Shown here piece after piece: positions 5,499 to 20,728 of a DNA stretch of 24,000 bases. The notes beneath the pieces were generated by a model. That model saw only the letters and a program-made list of their open reading frames with translations. It was not told the DNA's origin and did no database searches. The position numbers were made by a program, and so were the translations under genes. Each line of letters begins with the position of its first letter. Within the stretch, counting starts at the first letter, position 1. Source of the DNA: Alphaproteobacteria bacterium (lineage in GTDB: Bacteria > Pseudomonadota > Alphaproteobacteria > JAJTHO01 > CANGYM01); NCBI GenBank assembly GCA_044235825.1, contig JBIIHL010000020.1:4494-28493 (forward strand), read 5' to 3'.

Positions 5499-6572
5499 TC
5501 ACCCCACCCACCGCGCCAACGTTGGCTTTAAACTGGTCAGCAGTTCATAGGGAATGGTCCCCGCACTGTGGGCGGCGGCGATGATGCCCCCTTGTTCAGG
5601 GGCGTAAAAGATAACCTCGTTGGCCTCTGATACCACAGACTCCGGAACATCTGTCCCGTCCAACGTGGTGACATCCATGGAAACGCGGCCCACAACGGGC
5701 AAAGGAAACACAGACCCATCTTTGGCTCTGATGATGGCCTGCCCCACGTTGGAAAAGGACCGCAAATACCCATCCGCATACCCAAACCCCACGGTCATGA
5801 TCTGACGGGGACGGGGGGCGATGTAGCTGGCCCCGTACCCAACACTCTCGCCGGCGGCGATGACGCGGACCTCTAAAATGGGGGCATGAACTTCCGCCAC
5901 AGGACGCACATCAGGGTGCGCCATCCCTCCATAAAGGGCAATCCCTATACGAACAAATGTCCCATGATAAGACGGCCCCAGAAGTACCCCATGACTGGCC
6001 GCAATGCTGGTGGGAACGCCTGGAAAAAATCGCGTGATGGCCGCAAAAACCTCTTTTTGCTGAACGTTCAGGGGATGATCCGGCACATCCGCCGCCGCCA
6101 GATGCGTCATGATATGATGCAAACGCTTGGGGTCCAAACGGGAAACCTCCTCCGCCAGCGCGGGGGATAAACCACAGCGATGCATCCCCGTGTCCCACTC
6201 CACCACGGCGGGCCCACGATCCTCGGAAAACCAAGAGGATAACGCCTGCGACGTTTTTAACACCGGAATGATGCCGTGCTGCTGATAAACCGGCATTTCT
6301 TCTGCCAAATACCCATGAAACACCACAATCTCTGGGGTCAAAAACCCATGGTCCTGCAGCAGACGCCGCACCGCAACCCCCTCATCCAAACTGGCCACGT
6401 AAAAAAGAGAGCACCCCGCCCCCGCCAAAAGCGGCACCACGGGCGTCAAACCCAAACCGTAGGCATCCGCCTTCACCACAGCCCCGCACTGGGATGCGGG
6501 GGCTATGGCCTGCATGATACGATAATTATGAATCACAGACTCTGTATCAAGATAAACACGGGGCAGCCGCAT
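5499..6572 (-). CDS. alr: Alanine racemase
   Basis: PLP-lysine motif AVVKADAYGLG near the N-terminus, 357 aa, with a C-terminal ...IPYELLTSL... typical of Alr. Confidence 0.9.
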   Translation of the reverse strand: MRLPRVYLDTESVIHNYRIMQAIAPASQCGAVVKADAYGLGLTPVVPLLAGAGCSLFYVASLDEGVAVRRLLQDHGFLTPEIVVFHGYLAEEMPVYQQHGIIPVLKTSQALSSWFSEDRGPAVVEWDTGMHRCGLSPALAEEVSRLDPKRLHHIMTHLAAADVPDHPLNVQQKEVFAAITRFFPGVPTSIAASHGVLLGPSYHGTFVRIGIALYGGMAHPDVRPVAEVHAPILEVRVIAAGESVGYGASYIAPRPRQIMTVGFGYADGYLRSFSNVGQAIIRAKDGSVFPLPVVGRVSMDVTTLDGTDVPESVVSEANEVIFYAPEQGGIIAAAHSAGTIPYELLTSLKPTLARWVG

Positions 6573-6584
6573 GATGAGATCCTT

Positions 6585-6857
6585 TTAAGAAGCCCCCACC
6601 GTTTGCAAACGATCAAACAGCTTGATCGTATACTCCATCAACGTGGTGAGCATAAACGGAAACAGGAACACCAAGGCCGTGAACACAGACAGAATTTTGG
6701 GAATAAACGACAACGTCATTTCCTGAATCTGGGTCAGGGCCTGAAACAGCGACACCACCAGACCCACAATCAAAGCCACCAACAAAATGGGCAGGGATAG
6801 CTTGATGGTGACCCACAGAGCCTCGCGCATAATGTCGGTCACTTCGGTCACGGTCAT
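6585..6857 (-). CDS. fliQ: Flagellar biosynthetic protein FliQ
   Basis: The 90-aa membrane protein is near-collinear with FliQ: LPILLVALIVGLVVSLFQALTQIQEMTLSFIPKILSVF. Confidence 0.9.
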   Translation of the reverse strand: MTVTEVTDIMREALWVTIKLSLPILLVALIVGLVVSLFQALTQIQEMTLSFIPKILSVFTALVFLFPFMLTTLMEYTIKLFDRLQTVGAS

Positions 6858-15354: not shown

Positions 15355-17697
15355 ATGGTTTTACGGGTTTTGGCATGGGCATTGCTCGGGATTGTTGTCC
15401 TGCTTGGCATCGGGCTTTACAGCATAAACGATGTGATCAAAGCCCCCTATATCCGCGATCAGATTGTGGCGCAGGTCCAAAAAGCCACCGGACGCACCCT
15501 GACCATAAACGGCGACATGGCCATTCATTGGGGACTGTCCCCACGCCTGAGCCTGAATGGCATAAGCCTGAGCAATGCCCCCTTTGACACCACCGGCCCG
15601 ATGGTGCAGGCTAAAACAATCGACCTGAACATTGCCTTTCTTCCTTTAATTTTTGGGGATGTGGTCGTTGATGGGCTGGATGTGGGGGGGATGACTGTGC
15701 GCCTGACCATTGATCCCAAGGGCAACACCAACTGGACACTCTCCCCCCCTGCCCCGCAACAGACCCCAAATACCGATGCCCAAGCCCCCGCATCCTCTGC
15801 AAAACCCCCCGCAGCCCCCCATCTGGTGATCCGCAATCTGTCCATTCGGGACAGCGTTGTTCTTTTCACCGATCAACGGACCAACACAACGACACAGGAA
15901 ACGCTGGACATTGCCAACCTGACCCTAGAGGGCCAGACCAAAGGGCACCGTTTCTCTCTGACAGGGGGATTGCGCCAAACCCCGCTGAGTCTTTCGGGGA
16001 CGATTCAGGACAGTCTGGCCCTGTTGTCCCGCACGGGACAAAGCCCCCTCACCCTGAAAGGCACGCTGGCCGATGTGGGATTTACGGCCGCGGGCATCAT
16101 CACAAAACATCTGGGGGCACTCAGCAAAGCCGAGGGCACCCTGACCCTGAACGCATCCGCTTGGCCCAAGGCGTTTCCGTCGCCGGATCTGCCGCCCATG
16201 ACCATGAAAACGGGGATTTTGTATACGCCGGAATCCGTGACATGGACGCAAGGGGAGATCACCAGCCTGGGGGCCACCGTCACCAGCAACGGCACGTACC
16301 GTTTGAAAGAGGGATCCTTTGATGGGGCCATTCAGGTGGCGTCTTCGGGATCTGCCGATCTGGCCACACGATTTCAGGTGCCTTTGTTGCAAAAGCCCCT
16401 GTCTGTCAAAGGCCGCCTTCAGAAAAAAGGGGACGTCATCACGTGGGGCAAGGTGAAGGGCACACTGGGCACCGCCACGACGGTTGAAAGCGACGGGACC
16501 CTGCGCTGGCCACAGGGGGCCGCCGTCCCCACGTTGGTGCAGGCGGATATACGCAGCCCTCTGGTGGTGCTGGCGGATCTGCAAACACCGGCCCCTGCCC
16601 CTGCTGCGCCCTCTGGGGCATCGGCGTTGCCTGAAAACGCCGCGCAAAACGATGCCGCCCCCACACCCAAGCCCGCGCCTGCCCCCGCCTCTTGGCGGCA
16701 GATCACCCTGTATCCCACCCCGTGGTCTGGTCTGCGCGGTGTGATCACGGTCAGTCTGGATCATGTTCGGGAAACGGCAGAGGCAGGGGATCTGTTGACC
16801 CAAGTCACCCTACGCGCCACCCAACAGGACGCCTTGGCCATGGAGGGTCGGGGGCGTTTTTATCAGGATGGGGGGATGACCTTTTCGGCCTCTTTAACGC
16901 CGCAGCCGCAGGGCCCCAAACCCACAACCCCACCCAAGGCAACCTTGGCCATGCTGCTGAATGTCACCCATCCCAATGTGGGGGCCTTGCTGAAAACAAC
17001 CGGCCTGACCTCTGCGATGCAGGGGGGGGGCAGTCACCTTTTGGCCAATGTCCAGGGCACCGGCCACACCCCTCAGACGGTGCTGGCCACCCTTTCTGGG
17101 GATGTCACCTTGGGCATGGGGCCGGCCACGGTTCAAAGCGAAGCCCTGCTTTCCTCCTTTGTGTCCGGTGATTTGGCGCGGGCTCTGCTGGGGGATCAAA
17201 AAACGCTGCCCCTCTCTTGCATCGCCACAAACTGGCCCTTTGTTCAGGGGGTGGCCACCACCCCCGTGACGCTGCTGGAAAGCCCCGCCGTGCGGGTATG
17301 GGGAACGGGCACCATCACTCTGGGCTCCAGCACCGTGGCCATGACCTTAACCCCCACGCCCAAAGACCCCCTGCTGGCGACCTTGGCGGTGCCGGTATCG
17401 GTTACGGGACCTTTGGATGCGCCCCGCGCCTCTTTGGGCAAGCAAGGGGTGGAAACCCTGACAAACACCGTGTTGTCCCTGATTCAAAACAAAGGGAAAC
17501 TGCCCGCCGCCCCCCTGCCCGCCAACGACGACATCTGCGCCAAGGTCCTGATTCCGCTGAAGGATGGGCGGTTTGAGGTGCGGGGGGTTAGTAACTCATC
17601 CCTCCCTCAAACCGCGCCTGAAGAACAGCCCTCTCAGAAGACCCACCCCCTGAAGAAGAAGGAGATTCTTGAGGGGTTGCGGGGGTTGTGGAGGTAG
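15355..17697 (+). CDS. AsmA family outer-membrane biogenesis/lipid-transport-like protein
   Basis: An N-terminal signal-anchor (VLRVLAWALLGIVVLLGIGLY) is followed by ...IRDQIVAQVQKATGRTLTINGDMAIHWGLSPRLSLNGISLSN, typical of the AsmA N-domain, then a long beta-rich body. ATG at 15355 has AAGAGG 6 nt upstream; the track start at 15307 is TTG. Confidence 0.8.
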   Translation: MVLRVLAWALLGIVVLLGIGLYSINDVIKAPYIRDQIVAQVQKATGRTLTINGDMAIHWGLSPRLSLNGISLSNAPFDTTGPMVQAKTIDLNIAFLPLIFGDVVVDGLDVGGMTVRLTIDPKGNTNWTLSPPAPQQTPNTDAQAPASSAKPPAAPHLVIRNLSIRDSVVLFTDQRTNTTTQETLDIANLTLEGQTKGHRFSLTGGLRQTPLSLSGTIQDSLALLSRTGQSPLTLKGTLADVGFTAAGIITKHLGALSKAEGTLTLNASAWPKAFPSPDLPPMTMKTGILYTPESVTWTQGEITSLGATVTSNGTYRLKEGSFDGAIQVASSGSADLATRFQVPLLQKPLSVKGRLQKKGDVITWGKVKGTLGTATTVESDGTLRWPQGAAVPTLVQADIRSPLVVLADLQTPAPAPAAPSGASALPENAAQNDAAPTPKPAPAPASWRQITLYPTPWSGLRGVITVSLDHVRETAEAGDLLTQVTLRATQQDALAMEGRGRFYQDGGMTFSASLTPQPQGPKPTTPPKATLAMLLNVTHPNVGALLKTTGLTSAMQGGGSHLLANVQGTGHTPQTVLATLSGDVTLGMGPATVQSEALLSSFVSGDLARALLGDQKTLPLSCIATNWPFVQGVATTPVTLLESPAVRVWGTGTITLGSSTVAMTLTPTPKDPLLATLAVPVSVTGPLDAPRASLGKQGVETLTNTVLSLIQNKGKLPAAPLPANDDICAKVLIPLKDGRFEVRGVSNSSLPQTAPEEQPSQKTHPLKKKEILEGLRGLWR

Positions 17698-18691
17698 GGG
17701 GTAATTCAGCCAATCTACCTTTTATTAAACTGACAAACGTAGGATAACTGGATAAAGGATTTTGGCTATCGGGGGCAATAACGTCCAAACAGCGCTGTAA
17801 AAAAAGCCTCCCTGTGTTTAATTTTTTATCCAAAATTCTAATAATATAATCCTCTAGTTTTGAACTCTCTAATGGTGAATTTTTGCATTGTGAAAAACTG
17901 TTCAAAATACTTCCCCGAACCCCTTGTTCGGCTGCGATATATGCTCCGTTTAAGGCCACGCTCTCACGGCGATAATTAATACTACCGAAATCTCTTTGGT
18001 CGATCTCTTGCAAAGCAGATGGATAATTCGTTCCCATCTGAGATCTGAAAGCATTTACAAAACTTTCTAACGCTTTTTGCTGGGCATCATATGGTCTATC
18101 GGGCGAATACGATGTCATGATCGCTGACATCAGGAAGGTTCTAGAAATATCAGAAACCTTAACGTTATCGTTAATTCTAAGCAATTGCTTAATGGCTTGT
18201 TTTAAAGGTCTTTTTTCTCCTTTGGGGGAATCCTGATGCAGTTCAGATTGTTCTAGTAGCAAAGCCTGTTCAAATTCTTCTGCTAGCAAAGCAACTAGAG
18301 CATCCACCCATTTTGGGTCAAGTTGATCTTTCTTTAAATTCACTATGGGAATAGCAAACAAACTATCGTTAGAATCCTTGCCAAGCCATCTAGCTTCAAG
18401 AAGGGCACTATCATACCGTTTATTAAAATCATCCAAGTCTTGCGAGTCTAAAAACGCTATCAAGTCAGGATCTTCCAAAGGAACCCAAGTGGCTCCTCTT
18501 TCTACTGCATTATAAACAAAAGATTTTACAAGATATTCTTTCAAAGCATGGTCCACATCAGAGCCCTTGGCGGTGACGGCTCTCATACTGTCGAGATCCT
18601 CTGGATTTAATCGAACTAATGCTTCGATACAGGATGCAAGATTTGCTTTTGCGCTTTCGAGGTCCTCTGGATTAACAATTCTAGTAATCAT
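17588..18691 (-). CDS. Orphan hypothetical protein, 367 aa, encoded on AT-rich DNA; no recognisable domain
   Basis: A long uninterrupted ORF with an ATG start, in a segment whose composition drops sharply. My hand counts of 60-nt samples give 60% GC at 17521-17580, 33% at 17701-17760 and 37% at 18301-18360. No competing ORF covers 17.7-18.7 kb. The last ~37 codons overlap the asmA 3' end on the opposite strand. Confidence 0.6.
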   Translation of the reverse strand: MITRIVNPEDLESAKANLASCIEALVRLNPEDLDSMRAVTAKGSDVDHALKEYLVKSFVYNAVERGATWVPLEDPDLIAFLDSQDLDDFNKRYDSALLEARWLGKDSNDSLFAIPIVNLKKDQLDPKWVDALVALLAEEFEQALLLEQSELHQDSPKGEKRPLKQAIKQLLRINDNVKVSDISRTFLMSAIMTSYSPDRPYDAQQKALESFVNAFRSQMGTNYPSALQEIDQRDFGSINYRRESVALNGAYIAAEQGVRGSILNSFSQCKNSPLESSKLEDYIIRILDKKLNTGRLFLQRCLDVIAPDSQNPLSSYPTFVSLIKGRLAELPPTSTTPATPQESPSSSGGGSSERAVLQARFEGGMSY

Positions 18692-18854: not shown

Positions 18855-18880
18855 TATAACCAATCATCCCATAGACTGTG

Positions 18881-19144
18881 ATGTTCATCATGACTGACAT
18901 TATATCCTCTCGAGACGCGCAAAACCACTTTGGGTCCCTTTTGGATCGGGCCCAGCATGCGCCTGTGATTATCAAGCGGCACAAGCGCGATTGCGTGGCC
19001 GTCATTTCCATGCAAGATTTTGCCCAGTGGCAGGCGTTAAAATCCCAAAATTTCCTGTCTTTGCGCCATGACCTTGCCGAAAAAGCAGCCCAGCGCGGCC
19101 TAACCCCTGAAATCCTGTCAGAGATTCTCGCCTCTGATGCTTAA
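18881..19144 (+). CDS. Type II antitoxin, Phd/YefM family
   Basis: Small (~85 aa) protein with ...ISSRDAQNHFGSLLDRAQHAPVIIKRHKRDCVAVISMQDF, typical of the Phd/YefM N-terminal fold. It overlaps the downstream PIN gene by 8 nt. Start is ambiguous (GTG 18878, ATG 18881, ATG 18890). Confidence 0.8.
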   Translation: MFIMTDIISSRDAQNHFGSLLDRAQHAPVIIKRHKRDCVAVISMQDFAQWQALKSQNFLSLRHDLAEKAAQRGLTPEILSEILASDA

Positions 19145-19550
19145 AAGGTTTGTTTTTGACACCAATGTCCTGATCAGTGCCTTCTTGGCCCCGCTTACGC
19201 CACCCTTTCAGGCGTTAACCTATGCCATCAAAGAAGGGATTTTGCTGCGTTCTCAAGAAACCGATGCGGAACTGACCTCTGTCCTCGCCAGACCCAAATT
19301 TCGCCGGTATTTATCAACTTCTGAAACACAGTCTTTGCTCGCCTCTTATCATGACGTTGCTGAACACATTCCCCATGTTCCCCCCATTGCTATATGCCGC
19401 GACCCCAACGATGATAAATTTCTGGCCTTGGCCGTGCATGGCCATGCGTCTTATGTGATTACGGGCGACCAAGACTTGCTGATTTTAAACCCCTTTTCAG
19501 GCATTCCCCTGCTAACACCTAGGGCATTTTTAACCACGTGTGGATTGTGA
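19137..19550 (+). CDS. PIN-domain toxin (the 'putative toxin-antitoxin system toxin component, PIN family' type)
   Basis: FVFDTNVLISAFL.........ELTSVLARPKF.RY......ICRDPNDDKFLALAVHGHASYVITGDQDLLIL....GIPLLTPRAFL matches this PIN subfamily, including the conserved acidic positions. Confidence 0.88.
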   Translation: MLKRFVFDTNVLISAFLAPLTPPFQALTYAIKEGILLRSQETDAELTSVLARPKFRRYLSTSETQSLLASYHDVAEHIPHVPPIAICRDPNDDKFLALAVHGHASYVITGDQDLLILNPFSGIPLLTPRAFLTTCGL

Positions 19551-19587
19551 TATTTTTCACCCCCCCAACACCTAAATTGCGGCAGGA

Positions 19588-19687
19588 CCCTCTCCCTAGC
19601 CCTCTCCCTGACAGGGAGAGGGAACACAACCTCCTCCCTCTCCCCCCCGGGGAGAGGGCTGGGGAGAGGGGCCGTCACAAAATCATA
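19588..19687. repeat. Left palindromic repeat block (extra hairpin unit plus a 57-bp unit shared with the right flank)
   Basis: CCCTCTCCCT occurs twice (19588-19597, 19600-19609) and pairs with AGGGAGAGGG at 19613-19622. CCCTCTCCCC (19636-19645) pairs with GGGGAGAGGG (19649-19658), and a second GGGGAGAGGG lies at 19661-19670. The tail is CACAAAATCATA. Confidence 0.85.
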
Positions 19688-19721
19688 GATTGATAACAAA
19701 ACATGCCTATACTCATAACTT

Positions 19722-20066
19722 ATGCCCCCCATCAAAGATCACGCCAAATATCTCCGATCCACAATGACAGAAGCAGAGCAATGTCTGTGGCGTGCATTGC
19801 GTGCCCAACGCTTTCATGGTTTTAAATTCCGAAGGCAACATATATTTGACCATTATATTGTTGATTTCGTTTGCTTAAAGAAAAAACTGATCATCGAAAT
19901 CGATGGGGGTCAACATGCAGATCAGTGGTTATACGATCAAAGACGAACAGAATTTTTAACGTCTCAAGGATACCGTGTTTTGCGTTTTTGGAATTCGGAT
20001 GTTCTGAATCACCTTGAATACGTTTTAGAAACTGTTTTGCAATCTCTTCGTCATGCTGAAGAATAA
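19722..20066 (+). CDS. DUF559 domain protein (Vsr-like / PD-(D/E)XK endonuclease fold)
   Basis: ...MTEAEQCLWRALRAQRFHGFKFRRQHIFDHYIVDFVCLKKKLIIEIDGGQH........D..R...L...GYRVLRFWN.DVL matches the DUF559 family. A hand count gives ~38% GC at 19861-19920. Confidence 0.88.
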   Translation: MPPIKDHAKYLRSTMTEAEQCLWRALRAQRFHGFKFRRQHIFDHYIVDFVCLKKKLIIEIDGGQHADQWLYDQRRTEFLTSQGYRVLRFWNSDVLNHLEYVLETVLQSLRHAEE

Positions 20067-20076
20067 TTTTCAGCCC

Positions 20077-20132
20077 CTCCTCCCTCTCCCCCTCGGGGAG
20101 AGGGTTGGGGAGAGATGCGCCACAAAATCATA
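20077..20132. repeat. Right copy of the ~57-bp palindrome-containing direct repeat
   Basis: CTCCTCCCTCTCCCC-CTC-GGGGAGAGGG-TT-GGGGAGAG...CACAAAATCATA. By hand alignment, 48 of ~57 positions are identical to 19631-19687, in the same orientation. Confidence 0.85.
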
Positions 20133-20147
20133 AACCCGTATTTTTTA

Positions 20148-20176
20148 TTGCCTCCAACCCCTGCGGGGATTATGAT
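20148..20176 (+). promoter_or_regulatory. Candidate promoter for ssb (TTGCCT-17 nt-TATGAT)
   Basis: TTGCCT at 20148-20153, a 17-nt spacer, TATGAT at 20171-20176. GGGGA lies 8 nt before the ssb ATG. Pattern only. Confidence 0.35.
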
Positions 20177-20218
20177 TCGGTTTTTGATTGATGACAACAC
20201 AGTGATGGGGATTCTTTT

Positions 20219-20728
20219 ATGGCCGGAAGTTTAAACAAAGTCATGCTGATTGGCAACGTGGGCAAAGACCCTGAAATTCGCACCTCCCAGGATGGGACCA
20301 AATTGGCGACGCTTACCTTGGCCACATCCGAAACATGGCGCGACAAACAATCGGGGGAGCGCAAAGACCGCACCGAATGGCACCGCGTGGTGATTTTTAA
20401 CGACAAACTGGCGGATATCGCCGAGCGCTATGTCAAAAAAGGCAGCCGCATTTTTATCGAGGGCCAACTGCAAACCCGCAAATGGACCGACCAAAGCAAC
20501 GTTGAAAAATACACAACAGAAATTGTCATTTCCCGCTTTAAAGGCGAGCTGACCCTGCTGGATACCAAATCCGACGGCGGCGGCGCCCGCGGCGGCAGTG
20601 GGTACGAGGGGGGATCCTCTCTGGCCGGCCCGGGTGACGGGGCTTTGTATTATGACAGCCCCGAAACGCGGCCCTCCGCCCCTGCGGTCCATTTGGAAAA
20701 AGAGCTTGATGACGAAATCCCGTTTTAG
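20219..20728 (+). CDS. ssb: Single-stranded DNA-binding protein
   Basis: LNKVMLIGNVGKDPEIR....G...A...LATSE.W.D...GERK..TEWHRVV.F......A..Y..KGS...IEG.LQTRKW, a Gly-rich linker and the acidic tail DDEIPF. Confidence 0.95.
   Translation: MAGSLNKVMLIGNVGKDPEIRTSQDGTKLATLTLATSETWRDKQSGERKDRTEWHRVVIFNDKLADIAERYVKKGSRIFIEGQLQTRKWTDQSNVEKYTTEIVISRFKGELTLLDTKSDGGGARGGSGYEGGSSLAGPGDGALYYDSPETRPSAPAVHLEKELDDEIPF

Follow-up and report, generated by a model that had tools for sequence, protein, structure and literature searches.

The 24,000-nt stretch analyzed here (the window), from contig JBIIHL010000020.1 of an alphaproteobacterial genome, carries a gene for a small DUF559 nuclease between a PIN toxin gene and ssb, and the gene is bracketed by palindromic repeats. 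We found that the association of such functional-looking nuclease genes with matched triplex-motif repeats is conserved, cassette-like, and cross-phylum. The repeats are not of a new kind; by their sequence, they belong to the known class of intrastrand triplex motifs, named BoxC in Escherichia coli, then PIT (potential intrastrand triplex), and then TM or TMECO (Holder et al. 2015, PMC4666352). The pairing extends well beyond this locus: members of the repeat family are dispersed, with strong enrichment beside DUF559 genes. No paper linking the DUF559/YcjD family with these repeats was found in the literature searched (subscription journals were outside its scope), and the link appears to be unreported so far.

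The two repeat copies closest to the gene, at 19631-19687 and 20077-20132, lie in the same orientation with a start-to-start distance of 446/445 nt. The first-pass annotation had counted 48 identical positions by hand; alignment raised this to 51 of 57, with one 1-nt gap. Each copy contains a perfect 10+3+10 hairpin (19636-19645/19649-19658 and 20082-20091/20095-20104) of the form CCCTCTCCCC-N3-GGGGAGAGGG, followed by a third, G-rich block, GGGGAGAG(GGG), and then the tail CACAAAATCATA, both common to the two copies; the additional G-rich half-sites fall at 19661-19671 on the left and 20107-20114 on the right. An extra unit on the left consists of CCCTCTCCCT (19588-19597 and again 19600-19609) and AGGGAGAGGG (19613-19622). 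The hairpins, further half-site, shared tail, and extra left unit were thus all present as first described. We call the extra unit H0 and the direct-repeat unit R. Within 19580-19690, H0 and the left R fold as a single long hairpin (-39.9 kcal/mol, z = -7.1; Watson-Crick folding of single-stranded DNA), and the layout of the window can be written (C-C-G)(C-G-G)-gene-(C-G-G). Allowing at most 1 mismatch, the 10-mer occurs 10 times in the window, against 3.3 ± 1.9 expected, with 8 of the 10 at the DUF559 locus, and all triplex-motif copies in the window are intergenic. The gene is AT-richer than its surroundings, as the annotation had observed (GC content of 0.40 for the open reading frame [ORF] versus 0.536 for the window), and this low GC content suggests horizontal acquisition.

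We assigned the repeats to the BoxC/PIT/TM class because both their block architecture and their near-identical sequence match TMECO. The architecture comprises a C-rich block, a short loop, a complementary G-rich block, two bases, and a second G-rich block. Triplex motifs have been defined as a pyrimidine block, a complementary purine block, and a second purine block, with stems of 6 to 15 nt and loops of about 1 to 6 nt (PMC4666352). The unit at 19636-19671 measures 10 + 3 + 10 + 2 + 11 nt, that at 20082-20114 is built likewise, and 19588-19622 has the complementary C-C-G form. Like other members of the class, the units are intergenic, multicopy, and dispersed, and H0 with R forms an inverted pair. 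The window sequence CCCTCTCCCCCCCGGGGAGAGGGCTGGGGAGAGGGG is near-identical to CCCTCTCCCTGTGGGAGAGGGCCGGGGTGAGGGC of TMECO (Table 1 of PMC4666352), and GGGGAGAGGGG reads as a mirror repeat, compatible with triplex formation.

The class has been described by Hoyne and Maher (2000) and Holder et al. (2015, PMC4666352). According to the latter, strain MG1655 has 23 TMECO copies, all intergenic and five as inverted pairs, and TM repeats occur in >260 genomes. The triplex forms in vitro and not detectably in vivo, and TM loci are more rearranged than control sites between E. coli strains. The flanking genes have no common function, a mobility function nearby was explicitly not found, and neither promoter nor terminator activity was observed for PIT elements (PMC4666352). 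We dropped a G-quadruplex reading of the paired G blocks because a quadruplex was excluded by nuclear magnetic resonance for TMECO (PMC4666352). An Rfam search of 19400-20300 returned no matching RNA family, only subthreshold matches to eukaryotic microRNA hairpins; these reflect the long palindrome, and an RNA-family identity for the repeats was rejected.

Searches centered on the motif showed both its dispersal and its preferred neighbor. Among genome contigs, the exact 39-nt pattern matched one other metagenome-assembled genome, a related Lake Mendota alphaproteobacterium (L001), in which two clusters of the composite unit lie between tRNA genes with no DUF559 gene. (One of these stretches, 6230-6760, has composite triplex-motif units between three tRNA genes and no protein gene nearby.) A metagenome scan with a 28-specified-base core recovered at least 120 loci from soil, groundwater, and freshwater, and a DUF559 profile built from 120 homologs was run on the 120 loci listed. 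DUF559 was present at 7 of them, always directly adjacent (<120 nt from the motif), and nowhere else in 672 kb. When ORFs within 1 kb of the motif at the listed loci were clustered by sequence, DUF559 headed the recurring families, and nothing resembling a transposase or RAYT came up repeatedly; this clustering relied on sequence comparison, with no Pfam scan of the clusters. Where two motif copies lie far apart at other loci, the genes between them are ordinary and large, not further small mobile genes, and we therefore rejected the idea that cryptic DUF559 genes lie between such pairs.

The converse samples consisted of DUF559 loci picked without reference to the motif. Hairpin repeats with a C arm and a G arm occurred in the flanks of 11/11 IMG/VR loci (8 distinct) encoding homologs of 37 to 56% identity; they were not found in the flanks of three more distant phage-borne homologs. 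Among 12 named replicons, 11 had repeats beside the gene (Neisseria gonorrhoeae, E. coli, two Azospirillum, Shinella, Sinorhizobium, Sphingomonas, Novosphingobium, Methylobacterium, Deinococcus, and Picosynechococcus), and none were found beside the twelfth, a truncated Pseudomonas aeruginosa copy. Repeats were also present at 3/3 further replicons and 3/3 further metagenome homologs. A strict three-block detector was positive at 20 of 27 gene-centered loci, against a background of 3 to 5 units per 50 kb in Sphingomonas and Azospirillum stretches, gene-adjacent units included. Hairpin density was 2.56/kb within 300 nt of the gene and fell to 0.25/kb farther out at these loci. Nearly every YcjD-clade DUF559 gene in these samples adjoins or sits between triplex-motif repeats, and the pairing is seen across Proteobacteria, Deinococcus, and Cyanobacteria, with different arm sequences. 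The suspicion raised by the first-pass annotation, that the palindromes and the gene belong together, was borne out to this extent: the repeat family is enriched beside DUF559, and orthologs and paralogs elsewhere do carry flanking palindromes.

The annotation had also stressed the direct orientation of the repeats, and this was not upheld by the homologs. Their common layout, in gene orientation, is a C-G-G unit upstream and a C-C-G unit downstream, that is, a matched inverted pair with the extra G block facing the gene, and the downstream unit is often repeated 2 to 4 times. These orientation calls rest on reading of the sequence, as the automatic detector is unreliable for orientation owing to the palindromic hairpin core. 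The direct arrangement in the window is one of several strain variants, not a conserved feature. A 71%-identical homolog at another locus (L006) has the same half-site, tail, and leader upstream and 2.5 units downstream.

Repeat arms are matched within a locus and differ between loci, most clearly in Sphingomonas parapaucimobilis YK209. This genome has three DUF559 paralogs of 47 to 50% mutual identity, at gatB/yqeY|dnaG, at sufB|sufC, and between two pnt subunits (pntAA|pntAB), each with its own matched arms (TCCCCTCCCGC, CCCCTCCCCT, and CCTCCCCG). The solo units found 2 to 12 kb away from the cassette at sufB|sufC have the arms of another paralog instead. Because the arms match per paralog and differ from nearby solo units, the repeats behave as the ends of a discrete cassette, not as the host's nearby repeats. 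Neither the window nor the insertions at sufB|sufC and pntA showed a target-site duplication. The S. parapaucimobilis cassettes (L176, L177, and L185) include insertions within operons, at sufB|sufC and between the pnt subunits, co-oriented with them. In the downstream Sphingomonas repeat, the terminal G block puts GGAGGA 8 nt before the next ATG, as if replacing that gene's ribosome-binding site.

In E. coli K-12, the spacer between ycjD and fabI contains TMECO #9 (1,351,239-1,351,204) at a distance of 167 nt from ycjD; the position of this motif beside the gene is listed without comment in Table S2 of Holder et al. (PMC4666352). The gene is present in 3378/5426 complete E. coli genomes and has been reported to occupy the sapF-fabI site in exactly the lineages without the eefRABCD efflux operon (PMC12817139). 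Beyond TMECO #9, homology with a strain that carries eef is regained after about 15 nt. We considered whether TMECO sites are decayed ycjD cassettes and rejected this, as no genome had the ycjD 3' end at more than 2 places, and both of these were local. Within the K-12 spacer (L175, 3800-3990), the last ~40 nt of ycjD and the hairpin are duplicated in tandem downstream of the gene, apparently the remains of a second copy of the cassette. In N. gonorrhoeae, the gene for the structurally solved homolog (PDB 3HRL) lies between ~110-nt direct repeats and adjoins, at ~80 nt, an array of TM-bearing units (281 bp x 3.1; L186, 23631-24490). A second, gene-less array (278 bp x 8.4; 31757-34108) lies 7 kb away, and in both arrays the ~280-bp units carry triplex-motif blocks in both orientations. 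The sequence GATAACAAAA-ATG stands upstream of the N. gonorrhoeae gene, as in the window leader.

Among contigs that encode an identical SSB, we found at least five configurations upstream of ssb. Three contigs have PEPcase followed by ssb with no repeat (L133, L135, and L136); three have Phd, a different palindromic element, and ssb (L128, L129, and L131); and one has Phd-PIN, a single simple hairpin with tail, and ssb (L134). The composite unit precedes the gene and R follows it in the window, L004, and L137, and in L132 and L130 one or two composite units precede the gene, which is followed by R and a further composite unit. The empty site that had been predicted, with PIN running directly to ssb, is that of L134; this allele keeps one hairpin and tail and could equally be a deletion product. 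The last half-site and tail of the right copy in the window match the hairpin and tail kept there. The DUF559 gene is 100% identical in every strain variant that has it, and Phd/PIN likewise occurs in some strains and not in others. At this locus, strains differ by gain, loss, and change in copy number of the cassette and its repeat units. The element in L128, L129, and L131 (about 2290-2440; GTCATTGCGAGC...GCTCGCAATGAC, about 100 nt) occupies the same site in strains without PIN and the cassette and looks like another dispersed alphaproteobacterial repeat. In one strain variant (L139, 76-765), a gene for an IS1595-family DDE transposase lies directly upstream of Phd/PIN.

Three short contigs from three samples (ERZ27272061, ERZ27272079, and ERZ28593700) carry the identical DUF559 gene and close on themselves. 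L003 (587 nt) has an exact 141-nt terminal overlap, giving a 446-nt unit of the gene plus one repeat; L002 (705 nt) has a 141-nt overlap and a 564-nt unit of the gene, R, and one composite unit; and L005 (587 nt) has a 24-nt overlap and a 563-nt unit. Because the junction (gene 3' end, R, gene leader) is longer than the 52-nt identical repeat, these contigs would require real tandem or circular molecules, or else library chimeras. No self-closure was found in other short contigs of homologs (L180 to L184).

The gene encodes a full-length DUF559 protein, confirming the initial domain call: PF04480 matched with 145.8 bits (gathering threshold, 20.6; E 5e-43) over profile positions 4 to 108 of 109. 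The protein is 50% identical to E. coli YcjD and also 50% identical to N. gonorrhoeae NGO0050 (PDB 3HRL, E 8e-31), and one search returned >8000 close homologs of DUF559/YcjD. The score against the NCBIfam YcjD equivalog model (114 bits) was below its cutoff of 218, so that the protein is not a YcjD equivalog. The conserved predicted catalytic residues D48, E59, D61, Q64, and H65 are intact. With a dN/dS ratio of 0.09 relative to the 71%-identical homolog (P0002), the gene is evidently under purifying selection. The protein weakly resembles the catalytic domain of I-Bth0305I, a homing endonuclease (PDB 3R3P, E 0.011; PADLOC "HEase," E 1e-4), and VSR, DUF559, DUF2726, and I-Bth0305I have been grouped in one PD-(D/E)XK clade (PMC3424549). 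PADLOC gave no defense-system membership, only weak nuclease-domain matches. No methyltransferase or other conserved partner gene of DUF559 was found, the neighbors in the window being Phd/YefM, PIN, and ssb.

We consider the following reading of the locus evenly balanced between right and wrong: it would be a recombination-prone, horizontally acquired cassette (repeat, leader, nuclease gene, repeat) nested in TM repeats, with the nuclease acting on its own repeats. Such action is the most likely mechanism, although we give it at best an even chance and perhaps slightly less. The nuclease would recognize its own repeat, either as the interrupted homopurine/homopyrimidine palindrome in duplex form (as a dimer) or as an extruded hairpin or triplex, and would cut it. 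Repair of the break by recombination between repeat copies could then move or copy the gene, and the same repair could yield deletions, tandem or circular forms, and solo or paired repeats. Repeat cutting would also account for the instability already reported around TM repeats. More generally, and more tentatively, YcjD-clade DUF559 proteins may be the cognate nucleases of BoxC/PIT/TM repeats, a second system of repeats and resident enzyme beside REP/RAYT in which cuts by a minimal Vsr-fold nuclease drive its own spread, through circular or tandem intermediates, and genome instability; we think this somewhat more apt to fail than to hold.

Several observations weigh against these proposals. 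We infer binding or cutting of the repeats by the DUF559 protein from sequence, and the 114-aa protein has no extra DNA-binding domain. A stable triplex has not been seen in vivo (Holder et al., PMC4666352). One DUF559 gene amid many repeats is unlike a simple repeat-spreading enzyme: 113 of the 120 listed motif loci have no adjacent DUF559, and of the 18 TM sites in E. coli K-12, 17 have no DUF559 gene beside them and just one adjoins ycjD. About 38% of complete E. coli genomes lack ycjD and keep their TM copies, no ycjD remnants were found at other TMECO sites, and TMECO loci are mostly positionally fixed among strains (Holder et al., PMC4666352). Gain and loss could proceed by host homologous recombination between the 52-nt repeats without a dedicated enzyme, and minority duplications or library chimeras could have produced the circular or tandem contigs. 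The sampled loci are also modest in number, partly nonindependent (several IMG/VR loci represent one syntenic site), and confounded with taxonomy.

An improbable though serious alternative is that DUF559 is a selfish homing-type endonuclease gene, for which TM repeats and pairs, having spread independently, provide only a multicopy neutral landing site; the enzyme would cut an empty TM site, and repair would copy the gene in. The similarity to Vsr-like I-Bth0305I, weak as it is, is specific and fits this scheme, as do an empty allele that keeps its hairpin (L134), gene-less inverted TM pairs in E. coli (PMC4666352), the persistence of TM repeats without the gene, and the missing target-site duplication at the Sphingomonas insertions. 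However, dozens of potential targets exist and yet the gene is usually single copy, the protein lacks a domain that could recognize a long DNA target, and the insertions at sufB|sufC and pntAA|pntAB carry matched repeats unlike the solo ones nearby, which suggests that repeats travel with the gene. A little less probable again is a passive association, in which TM repeats are recombination or instability hot spots where a small, often transferred gene accumulates or carries repeats as structural baggage, the target of the nuclease being unrelated. This would suit the excess rearrangement of TM loci between E. coli strains (PMC4666352), a region upstream of ssb that is hypervariable in other respects too (presence of Phd/PIN, the other palindromic element, and IS1595 nearby), and identical 52-nt direct repeats that suffice for host-mediated deletion and duplication. 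It sits poorly with the specific recurrence of DUF559 alone among ORFs near the motif, with an association that holds across Proteobacteria, Deinococcus, and Cyanobacteria despite different arms, and with arms matched per cassette even inside a single genome; in addition, other pairs of motif copies enclose ordinary large genes and not small mobile ones.

Quite unlikely, in our view, is that the repeats are cis-regulatory parts of the gene's expression unit, such as a ribosome-binding purine block, an mRNA stabilizer or insulator, or an autoregulation operator, and that solo copies are unrelated look-alikes. The upstream C-G-G unit does end 7 to 40 nt before the start codon in L181, L180, L107, L177, and L014, with GGAGAGG as a possible Shine-Dalgarno sequence; the GGAGGA set before the next gene in Sphingomonas and the mostly co-oriented cassettes agree with such a role. 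In the window, however, the repeat ends 50 nt before the start codon (19671 versus 19722), and PIT elements showed neither promoter nor terminator activity (PMC4666352). In our own scan, too, the gene strand upstream of the ORF had no sigma-70-like site and the repeats no T-tailed terminator, and the downstream copies, tandem arrays, and dispersed family of identical composite structure (L001) would be left unexplained. We give very little credence to an integron-like cassette, a promoterless ORF with one palindromic recombination site excised as a circle by a recombinase encoded elsewhere. The 446-nt self-closing contig with the gene and exactly one repeat, the imperfect palindrome of the repeat, and the co-orientation of cassettes with flanking genes recall such a cassette, but no integrase is present in the window or related loci, the repeat has no attC features, and the cassettes stand singly at scattered loci, not arrayed beside an intI gene.

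Positions of the repeats, the DUF559 gene, and the bordering genes are collected in Table 1. The PIN and ssb borders are as first annotated, and Phd/YefM lies beside PIN. The tail segment AATCATAAACCC (20126-20137) is complementary to GGGATTATGATT (20166-20177), 28 nt downstream and just upstream of ssb, and this downstream arm falls in sequence common to all strain variants. Farther to the left, 17588-18691 (- strand) holds a 367-aa ORF with a GC content of about 0.40 and no Pfam, NCBIfam, or PADLOC match; at this position, strain variants have ORFs of other sizes (332 to 422 aa) without called domains. The whole AsmA-to-ssb interval is a hypervariable islet.

Table 1. Features of the DUF559 locus in the window (positions in the 24,000-nt stretch)
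Feature	Position	Strand	Remarks
Phd/YefM gene beside PIN (context only)	18878-19144		Domain search
PIN toxin gene, left border of variable region (context only)	19137-19550	+	Presence varies among strains independently of the cassette
x leader of composite repeat unit (CCTAAATTGCGGCAGGA)	19571-19587	+	Recurs with the unit in L002, L005, L130, and L132; diverged version at the L134 empty site
Composite palindrome, H0 + 13-nt spacer + R (inverted pair of triplex-motif units)	19585-19673	.	39-nt arms, 85% complementary
H0, triplex-motif unit, C-C-G orientation (CCCTCTCCCT-AG-CCCTCTCCCT-GAC-AGGGAGAGGG), inverted copy of the R type	19588-19622	+	Three-block detector calls the minus strand
Left direct-repeat copy, R-left + tail CCGTCACAAAATCATA	19630-19687	+	Repeat search, alignment
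R-left, triplex-motif unit, C-G-G orientation (CCCTCTCCCC-CCC-GGGGAGAGGG-CT-GGGGAGAGGGG)	19636-19671	+	TMECO block architecture (Table 1, PMC4666352)
Leader, repeat to start codon (GATTGATAACAAAAC...)	19688-19721	+	Kept with the gene in L006 (71% identical protein, other locus)
DUF559 gene, YcjD clade, Vsr-fold PD-(D/E)XK nuclease, 114 aa	19722-20066	+	PF04480, E 5e-43
Right direct-repeat copy, R-right (CCCTCTCCCC-CTC-GGGGAGAGGG-TT-GGGGAGAG) + tail ATGCGCCACAAAATCATA	20076-20132	+	Repeat search, alignment
ssb, right border (context only)	20219-20728	+	Protein identical in all strain variants

The pairing makes the DUF559 protein the first candidate partner enzyme for the BoxC/PIT/TM class. Known since the 1990s and present in hundreds of genomes, these repeats mark unstable loci, yet they have been assigned neither a protein nor an origin or a means of spread. 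DUF559/YcjD, for its part, has no known function, although the family is very large and includes an E. coli K-12 y-gene and a protein of solved structure. Their physical link joins two long-standing puzzles into one directly testable question, whether the nuclease acts on its neighboring repeat. A positive answer would establish small selfish or repeat-managing elements with a restriction-like fold as a new class and would explain a source of bacterial genome plasticity.

Compared with published BoxC/PIT/TMECO elements, the repeats described here share the three C-G-G blocks, short loops, intergenic and multicopy occurrence, frequent inverted pairs, and local rearrangement. They differ in that the literature gives no associated gene or mobility function, whereas one specific nuclease family is consistently found within the repeats described here; the window units, in addition, have conserved extras (the x leader and the CACAAAATCATA tail) and form ~118-nt composites in variable tandem number. 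With Vsr, the protein shares its fold and part of the active-site region, and many sources name such proteins "very-short-patch-repair endonuclease." We rejected that identity, as TIGR00632 scored 20.7 bits against a cutoff of 97.85 and there is no adjacent cytosine methyltransferase gene. The EDxHD/Vsr-like enzyme I-Bth0305I (PDB 3R3P) belongs to the same catalytic fold clade (PMC3424549), and the conserved D48, E59, D61, and H65 of the window protein correspond to the Vsr-like catalytic core of EDxHD homing endonucleases. The resemblance extends to selfish-gene behavior, presence/absence polymorphism, and insertion between operon genes. However, I-Bth0305I is intron encoded in a phage recA and has an added DNA-binding region, whereas the window protein is a bare 114-aa core, chromosomal, and repeat bracketed. 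Insertion sequences (IS) and miniature inverted-repeat transposable elements (MITEs) likewise have terminal inverted repeats around a single enzyme gene, and gene-less inverted pairs elsewhere; the cassettes described here have no transposase fold, no target-site duplications were seen, and there is usually one gene copy per genome.

The parallel that the first-pass annotation had drawn, with REP/REPIN-RAYT, holds as an analogy. In both cases, one enzyme gene lies between members of a palindromic repeat family that is dispersed in its genome, the flanking copies are typically inverted, doublets form long hairpins, and different gene lineages have different repeat sequences. In the window, the immediate flanks of DUF559 are direct and the inverted unit lies further left, and the homologs show flanking repeats as in REP/RAYT. 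The comparison fails at the enzyme, which has a Vsr-like PD-(D/E)XK fold, whereas RAYT is an HUH/Y1 (IS200/IS605-like) transposase, and at the repeats, which are homopurine/homopyrimidine triplex motifs; the GTAG/CGTC tetranucleotide of the REP head is not present in the window units. The proposed repeat-cassette logic resembles that of REP/RAYT or IS/MITE systems, with an unrelated enzyme fold, and the DUF559-repeat system is a variation on the theme of a repeat family plus a resident enzyme, in which the repeat class is already known and the gene link appears to be new.

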